A DNA stretch of 5,053 nucleotides, from the IMG/VR virus record IMGVR_UViG_2671181111_000008. The stretch is one strand, 5' to 3'. Shown here in pieces: positions 590-664 of the stretch. The translations under genes were made by a program, and so were the position numbers. Source of the stretch: a virus (Duplodnaviria > Heunggongvirae > Uroviricota > Caudoviricetes). The stretch's first letter is position 1, and the number at the start of each line of letters is the position of its first letter. Below the pieces are notes generated by a model. That model saw nothing but the letters and a program-made list of their open reading frames with translations, had not been told where the DNA came from and did no database searches.

Positions 590-664
590 TGGAGCGGGCA
601 GCGGGAATCGAACCCGCATCATCAGCTTGGAAGGCTGAGGTAATAGCCATTATACGNNNNNNNN
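590..664 (-). tRNA. tRNA-Gly(UCC)-like gene, 5' end (about 8 nt) masked by the N run
   Basis: Reverse complement of 590-656 gives a D-arm with GG, anticodon stem tcagc/gctga around loop CUUCCAA (U33, anticodon UCC, A37), T-arm gcggg-TTCGATT-cccgc, acceptor 3' strand tgcccgc, discriminator U and encoded CCA. The visible 67 nt match my recollection of E. coli tRNA-Gly2 (glyT). The end coordinate is extrapolated into the N run. Confidence 0.75.

Follow-up and report, generated by a model that had tools for sequence, protein, structure and literature searches.

Stx phages of the 933W type carry the tRNA genes ileZ-argN-argO downstream of the antiterminator gene Q and upstream of stx/S, an arrangement that we read in Stx2a_F349 (AP012530) and that agrees with what the first-pass annotation of the present locus had stated, namely ileZ and two arginine tRNAs in the lambdoid Q-to-S region. 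The classical view is that phage tRNAs supply codons that are common in phage genes and rare in those of the host. Helper plasmids of the pRARE/Rosetta type, which provide extra ileX, argU, glyT and thrU to read AUA, AGA, GGA and ACA, work on the same principle, but are artificial and evolutionarily unrelated to the phage cluster. In the Escherichia coli K-12 chromosome, glyT (b3978), encoding tRNA-Gly2(UCC), shares the operon thrU-tyrU-glyT-thrT-tufB with thrU, which precedes it. A pair annotated as tRNA-Thr(tgt)/tRNA-Gly(tcc) is also present in the phage records phi467 (LN997803), vB_EcoS-689R5, vB_EcoM-606R7 and PhiR47_1. Where aligned, these four phages were 96.6-99.2% identical to the tRNA region studied here; against the unmasked cluster of its relative FDAARGOS_944, identity was 98.7-99.7%. 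A literature search on ileZ/argN/argO, on glyT/thrU with prophage and on lambdoid tRNA-Thr/Gly returned a single descriptive mention, for an Stx2f phage.

The stretch of viral DNA analysed here (5,053 nt of IMG/VR record IMGVR_UViG_2671181111_000008, hereafter the window) is, judged by its gene content, the late-control region of a lambdoid prophage, with all relevant genes on the minus strand. Read along that strand it comprised hokD/sok, a DUF968 gene, rusA, Q, a pR'-like promoter, a hairpin, a second promoter, the tRNA genes, a 292-nt spacer and the holin gene S (Table 1), with the tRNA cluster (971-590) placed between Q, pR' and tR' on one side and S on the other, the same site as in Stx phages. 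Alignment to relatives gave a cluster of four genes, in the order ileZ, an argN-like gene, a thrU-like tRNA-Thr(UGU) and a glyT-like tRNA-Gly(UCC), spaced by 1-3 nt and with CCA encoded. The glycine gene, which the first-pass annotation had counted as the third member, is thus the fourth. By content and position it belongs with the known late-region clusters of the ileZ-argN-argO type, as a variant of different composition that is itself common.

Table 1. Features of the late-control region in window coordinates, with the basis of each assignment.
Feature	Position	Strand	Basis and remarks
Class II holin S, first lysis gene	82..297	(-)	ORF; PGAP annotation of homologue
Structured spacer, tRNA-Gly to holin S	298..589	(-)	RNA fold -92.5 kcal/mol, z = -4.78
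tRNA-Gly(UCC), glyT copy	590..664	(-)	Visible at 656-590; nt 1-8 (664-657) masked by N
N run, 139 nt	657..795	.	67 nt in all relatives examined
thrU-like tRNA-Thr(UGU), first 20 nt visible	796..815	(-)	Alignment; rest under N run
argN-homologous tRNA, called tRNA-Lys(UUU)	818..894	(-)	ARAGORN; Rfam 44.4 bits; argN alignment
ileZ, CAU anticodon, PGAP tRNA-Ile	896..971	(-)	ARAGORN, Rfam, PGAP
Predicted sigma-70 promoter TTGCAA-17-TATTAT and GC-rich stretch (CCTGCGCTC)	981..1009	(-)	Consensus scan; directly upstream of ileZ
GC-rich hairpin and T run, tR' candidate	1079..1102	(-)	Scan (reported on +); symmetrical hairpin, followed by TTTTTTG on the minus strand
pR'-like late promoter TTGCAA-17-TATATT	1153..1181	(-)	Consensus scan; downstream of Q
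Antiterminator Q gene	1170..1886	(-)	ORF list; PGAP annotation of homologue

The visible part of the glycine gene corresponded to nt 9-75 of tRNA-Gly(UCC), CCA included, and matched K-12 glyT at 67 of 67 positions, among them the anticodon loop CUUCCAA, U73 and the encoded CCA. The Rfam tRNA model (RF00005) matched 655-601(-) over model positions 10-63 with 41.6 bits (E=1.6e-6), exceeding the gathering score of 29. ARAGORN called only two tRNAs in the window, one with anticodon CAU and one as 'Lys UUU', and left the glycine gene uncalled only because its first eight nucleotides are N. Complete 75-nt copies were found at the equivalent position in many complete genomes, and in two close relatives in particular: the E. 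coli genome FDAARGOS_944 (L001), whose prophage was 99.7% identical to the window and from which PGAP annotation was borrowed, and the IMG/VR contig L068, which was 99.98% identical over 4,911 visible bases (100% identity over 4-656, one mismatch over 796-5053). ARAGORN called both with anticodon tcc, the triplet that occupies the middle of the 7-nt loop in the window, PGAP annotated the copy in FDAARGOS_944, and that in L068 scored 64.9 bits against the Rfam model. In both relatives, as in 606R7, PhiR47_1 and phi467, the gene was identical to glyT at 75 of 75 positions. An exact 71-mer comprising the glycine gene and 5 nt of phage flank had no match in genome_contigs.

The first-pass annotation had allowed that the masked 5' portion might fail to complete an acceptor stem. 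This was seen in no relative: all close relatives carried the 5' strand GCGGGCA, which pairs perfectly with the 3' strand UGCCCGC. In the window itself the 3' strand, U73 and CCA are visible while the 5' strand lies under the N run, where the relatives lead us to expect GCGGGCAU as nt 1-8. On this evidence the earlier identification of a real minus-strand tRNA-Gly(UCC), and of a copy of host glyT, holds, and the gene is an ordinary, previously annotated and host-identical member of the tRNA family. Its identity to a functional host tRNA and the conserved promoter of the cluster suggest that it would be transcribed, processed and aminoacylated with glycine.

Of its three neighbours, the threonine gene is the one that had escaped notice, as most of it is hidden by the N run. 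Window positions 815-796(-) read GCCGACTTGGCTCAGTAGGT, which is nt 1-20 of a thrU-like tRNA-Thr(UGU), with G at nt 9 in place of the A of K-12 thrU. At the same place in FDAARGOS_944 and L068 both ARAGORN and PGAP called tRNA-Thr(tgt); the gene is 76 nt long in relatives, and the copy in FDAARGOS_944 matched K-12 thrU at 75 of 76 positions, A9G being the sole difference. Like the Stx-phage cluster, the window cluster opens with ileZ, identical at 76 of 76 positions to ileZ of Stx2 phages and preceded by the same, conserved promoter, and has an argN homologue second; the same rare-codon rationale applies to both. Unlike in Stx phages, ileZ is not followed by two arginine tRNAs: the second gene has a UUU anticodon, and argO is absent, with thrU-like and glyT-like genes, host-identical and not of phage type, standing in its place. 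The second-position (slot-2) tRNA was identical to Stx-phage argN at 65 of 77 positions, and its 12 differences include an anticodon loop that reads CCUUUAA, against CUUCGAA in the Stx phage, with C33 replacing the near-universal U33.

Two predicted promoters flank the putative terminator between Q and the tRNA genes. The promoter directly upstream of ileZ (TTGCAA-17-TATTAT/TATCAT) was invariant across six aligned lineages whose upstream flanks were otherwise unalignable, which points to an autonomous transcription unit of the stable-RNA type. By analogy with the lambdoid layout, the pR'-like sequence downstream of Q would act as the late promoter, and the hairpin beyond it is a probable tR', where the short transcript from that promoter would end unless Q overrides termination. 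Sub-threshold matches to the Rfam families isrK/isrJ, small RNAs of the pR' type from Salmonella prophages, were found at 1077-1150(-) and 3659-3740(-), the former coinciding with the short transcript from pR' to tR'. In the predicted fold, the structured spacer downstream of the glycine gene formed three long hairpins, beyond which came a small hairpin with a U run (GCCCGCUUUUGCGGUUUUUU). The small hairpin may end transcripts from the cluster's own promoter ahead of the holin gene. Thr-Gly of the Stx2f phage phi467 is followed by this same spacer. Elsewhere in the window, Q contained a 27-nt in-frame tandem duplication (GGEGYEYQV/GGEGYEYQE, ~1343-1396) relative to FDAARGOS_944, L124 and others, which it had in common with L068; Q of FDAARGOS_944 is annotated as frameshifted. 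A full-length Rfam match to the sok antisense RNA (118.9 bits, 4074-3899(-)) adjoined hokD, forming a type I toxin-antitoxin pair.

The N run that separates the visible parts of the threonine and glycine genes is longer than what it replaces. In relatives the stretch behind it was 67 nt, comprising nt 21-76 of Thr, the spacer TAT and nt 1-8 of Gly (GCGGGCAT), and the N run exceeded this by 72 nt in comparison with L068, FDAARGOS_944 and all of the best 60 E. coli genomes, in the last of which the matching span was 598-599 bases against 671 query bases. Scans of IMG/VR and of JGI metagenomes found no sequence in which its two edges were separated by 125-150 nt. A gap of estimated size is a plausible explanation, because copies of glyT and thrU are genomic repeats, and the same repeats account for the tendency of short-read assemblies to break here. 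When Thr-Gly pairs separated by 60-90 nt were sought, one five-tRNA variant was found (L137, IMGVR_UViG_2571042512_000008, 691-1074(-)), with Met(CAU), ???, Thr(UGU), Arg(CCG) and Gly(UCC), in which the spacing was 79 nt, against the 75 nt needed by the window. That the 72 surplus N hide a fifth tRNA of this sort or, more generally, that gene conversion with the chromosome keeps the thrU/glyT pair identical to the host genes, seems very improbable to us; if true, the latter would give the prophage ~150 bp of perfect homology to the tufB operon, usable for recombination between phage and chromosome.

Adjoining an N run of excess length and composed of a repeat that breaks short-read assemblies, the glycine gene could also have been misjoined from the host glyT locus, and a chimeric assembly was among the explanations offered by the first-pass annotation. 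The gene is, however, followed by phage sequence (589-298 and the holin gene) and not by the glyT-thrT-tufB context, and 583 complete genomes, like the 99.98%-identical contig, have this join in contiguous sequence. As the sequences to either side of the N run line up with one and the same prophage there, a chimeric join is unsupported; we rejected it on collinearity and regard a misassembly as extremely unlikely.

We evaluated how widely the cluster occurs in complete E. coli genomes and found it in 583 of 5,426, counting matches that covered at least 80% of a 391-nt cluster query. A query for the Thr-Gly junction matched 6,556 places in 5,421 genomes, ~1,100 more than one host locus per genome; as two host pieces were merged into one place this query was non-discriminating, and only the excess of places is usable. 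By an exact-pattern scan, more than 120 IMG/VR contigs have Thr and Gly tightly joined, as do, among species-representative genomes, those of Citrobacter braakii, Enterobacter hormaechei, Shigella flexneri (three copies) and an E. coli strain (three copies). The pair is annotated in vB_EcoS-689R5, vB_EcoM-606R7, PhiR47_1, vB_EcoS-683R6 and the Stx2f phage phi467. Across 128 Thr-Gly loci the architectures were Met(CAU)-Lys(UUU)-Thr-Gly in 51, Met-Arg(UCU)-Thr-Gly in 38 and Thr-Gly alone in 19, with rarer forms making up the remainder. The suggestion that the glycine gene reflects an unusual repertoire therefore did not survive comparison: the cluster was previously known, with annotations in hundreds of RefSeq genomes and in several phage records, and would not surprise a specialist.

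Exchange with a host tRNA operon, the other origin that had been proposed, fared better. Whereas ileZ and the argN-like gene are of phage type, Thr and Gly are (near-)exact host copies; the hidden neighbour of the glycine gene is a copy of thrU, and the host encodes thrU and glyT in a single operon, in the same order as in the phage, which supports capture as a module. Compared with K-12, the phage pair is found in a prophage late region without tyrU, the 116-nt spacer, thrT or tufB, is separated by the 3-nt spacer TAT, and is driven by the promoter of the ileZ cluster and not by the thrU promoter. TAT equals the T after thrU joined to the AT before glyT, as expected if tyrU and the 116-nt spacer were simply deleted, though three bases are weak evidence and would agree by chance in ~6% of cases. 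On present comparisons, module exchange with the host operon is the best reading of the origin of the Thr-Gly pair, by a capture route that these remnants suggest.

We compared codon use in 58 annotated genes of PhiR47_1, which has the same cluster, with that in 42 K-12 genes. The glycine codons GGA (12.8 vs 6.0 per 1000; 2.1x, p=4e-9) and GGG (17.6 vs 9.2; 1.9x) were enriched in the phage, as were ACA (12.8 vs 5.4; 2.35x), AUA (7.6 vs 2.4; 3.1x), AGA (5.8 vs 1.2; 4.8x) and CGG (10.2 vs 3.5; 2.9x). Cognate codons of the cluster family (AGA/AGG, AUA, CGG, ACA, CGA, GGA) made up seven of the eight most enriched. CGG was the fourth most enriched phage codon, and L137 carries Arg(CCG). In the window's own genes GGA and GGG accounted for 30 of 66 glycine codons (45%), against 20% in the host sample. 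The enrichment of GGA, GGG, ACA and AUA fits codon supplementation, but the test, while consistent, is non-discriminating, since lambdoid phages in general, even ones that lack these tRNAs, are enriched in codons rare in the host. AAA was not enriched (37.2 vs 34.0 per 1000; 1.09x), and supplementation thus leaves the 'Lys(UUU)' slot unexplained.

We consider it probable that the Thr-Gly pair is a host-captured module, and that its glycine gene is functional within a four-tRNA lambdoid prophage unit that raises the supply of minor tRNAs. The pair would have been captured from thrU-tyrU-glyT-thrT-tufB, without tyrU and the 116-nt spacer, and would now be passed between lambdoid phages of enterobacteria as one module. 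The four-tRNA unit is likely transcribed from its own stable-RNA-like promoter and, if the lambdoid layout is a guide, also by Q-antiterminated read-through from pR' after induction. The glycine product would be chemically the same as host tRNA-Gly2 and would boost the supply of a minor tRNA, encoded by a single host gene, for reading GGA (and GGG), with neighbouring genes of the cluster likewise raising the supply for AUA and ACA, to the presumed benefit of phage translation. Against such a role for Gly stands the fact that the host already makes an identical tRNA.

In another reading the gene has no selected role for the phage: a thrU-glyT piece gained by illegitimate recombination would have spread with the lysis module as a neutral passenger and been kept identical to the host by recombination or gene conversion. 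The exact identity of Gly to the host gene agrees with this, since glyT identity could be kept by gene conversion instead of by selection on the phage copy. So does the mobility of the Thr-Gly-spacer-holin block as a unit: phi467 shares the Gly-to-holin spacer with the window and has the same block downstream of stx2f, with Thr-Gly only and neither ileZ nor an argN-like gene. The exact glyT sequence was present at 114 of the 128 Thr-Gly loci; the other 14 (11%) were singletons, with broken stems or lost bases in some of them, and Gly is accordingly dispensable in at least some prophages. Yet the mean minor-allele fraction was 0.005 at the 43 Gly positions outside the search pattern, against 0.17-0.32 in the flanks, and the Gly of the LT-IIb phage SerU-LTIIb carries a compensatory change in an acceptor pair (C6:G67 to U6:A67). 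Phage-specific thrU alleles persist, with T16C/T20C in 31 of the 128 loci and A9G in eight, and have not been erased by the host copy; homogenisation by the latter is therefore not overwhelming. A passenger would also have to be squared with the persistence of the module in many flank contexts and four genera, with a conserved cluster promoter, and with a codon match that extends over the whole cluster family. Taken together, the conservation of Gly, the compensatory change and the thrU alleles speak for a gene with a function and against a neutral passenger, although gene conversion may contribute to the identity of Gly, and we consider the passenger reading unlikely.

A function other than codon supply is conceivable: other phages are known to encode tRNAs that anticodon nucleases fail to cut, and the prophage tRNAs might replace those destroyed by anticodon nucleases or tRNA-modifying toxins of the host or of competitors. 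The slot-2 tRNA, with its altered anticodon loop (C33, UUU) and striking variability between loci, would suit such a counter-defence. The glycine tRNA, however, is the host molecule and would be equally cleaved or modified, so that dosage alone could help, and no defence or toxin gene directed against tRNA-Gly was identified in the window; we judge this reading very improbable. Many integrases target tRNA genes, and Gly could in principle be a remnant of an integration site with the attP/attB core within it. The gene is, however, complete, and its place is within a tRNA operon that has a promoter and lies between Q and S, with the integrase far off (in PhiR47_1, int is at the opposite end). 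An attP remnant was rejected on gene position, and there is next to no likelihood that the gene arose in this way.

The Q-to-S tRNA cluster of lambdoid prophages is thus modular, argO having been swapped in this lineage for two tRNAs that derive, on the preferred reading, from the host tufB operon. Additional copies of glyT and thrU, minor tRNA genes of which the host has one each, are therefore present in no fewer than one in ten of the sequenced E. coli strains, and could slightly ease translation of codon-atypical phage genes and horizontally acquired genes in lysogens. Beyond good annotation the significance of the finding is slight.

The variable and non-canonical anticodon loop of the argN-like tRNA is more curious than the glycine gene. 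Across the 128 loci the slot-2 loop was CUUCUAA (Arg UCU), CCUUUAA, or that of a second scaffold with loops of 5-6 nt, for which ARAGORN returned ???, Phe(aaa), Leu(taa) or Stop(tta) (slot-2 loci L007-L134). In Escherichia phage SerU-LTIIb (L138, KU052038) a thrU-derived tRNA at 1380-1455(-) had the anticodon UCU (Arg AGA) where thrU has UGU, and differed by four further changes; the record annotates Gly and lists its thrU-derived neighbour as tRNA-Arg. In this derivative a captured host tRNA has undergone a shift of anticodon. Enterobacter hormaechei B17-3 (L008) carried a chimeric tRNA in which the ileZ 5' end GGCCCTTTAGCTCAG was fused to the body of thrU, and which looks like the product of a recombinational deletion between D-arm sequences common to members of the cluster. 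A sister cluster in the PPompW prophage (L006, LC567818) comprised Met(CAU), 'Lys' and an argO-like Arg, with ISEc20 just downstream, and the 'Lys' form of slot 2 thus also co-occurs with argO.
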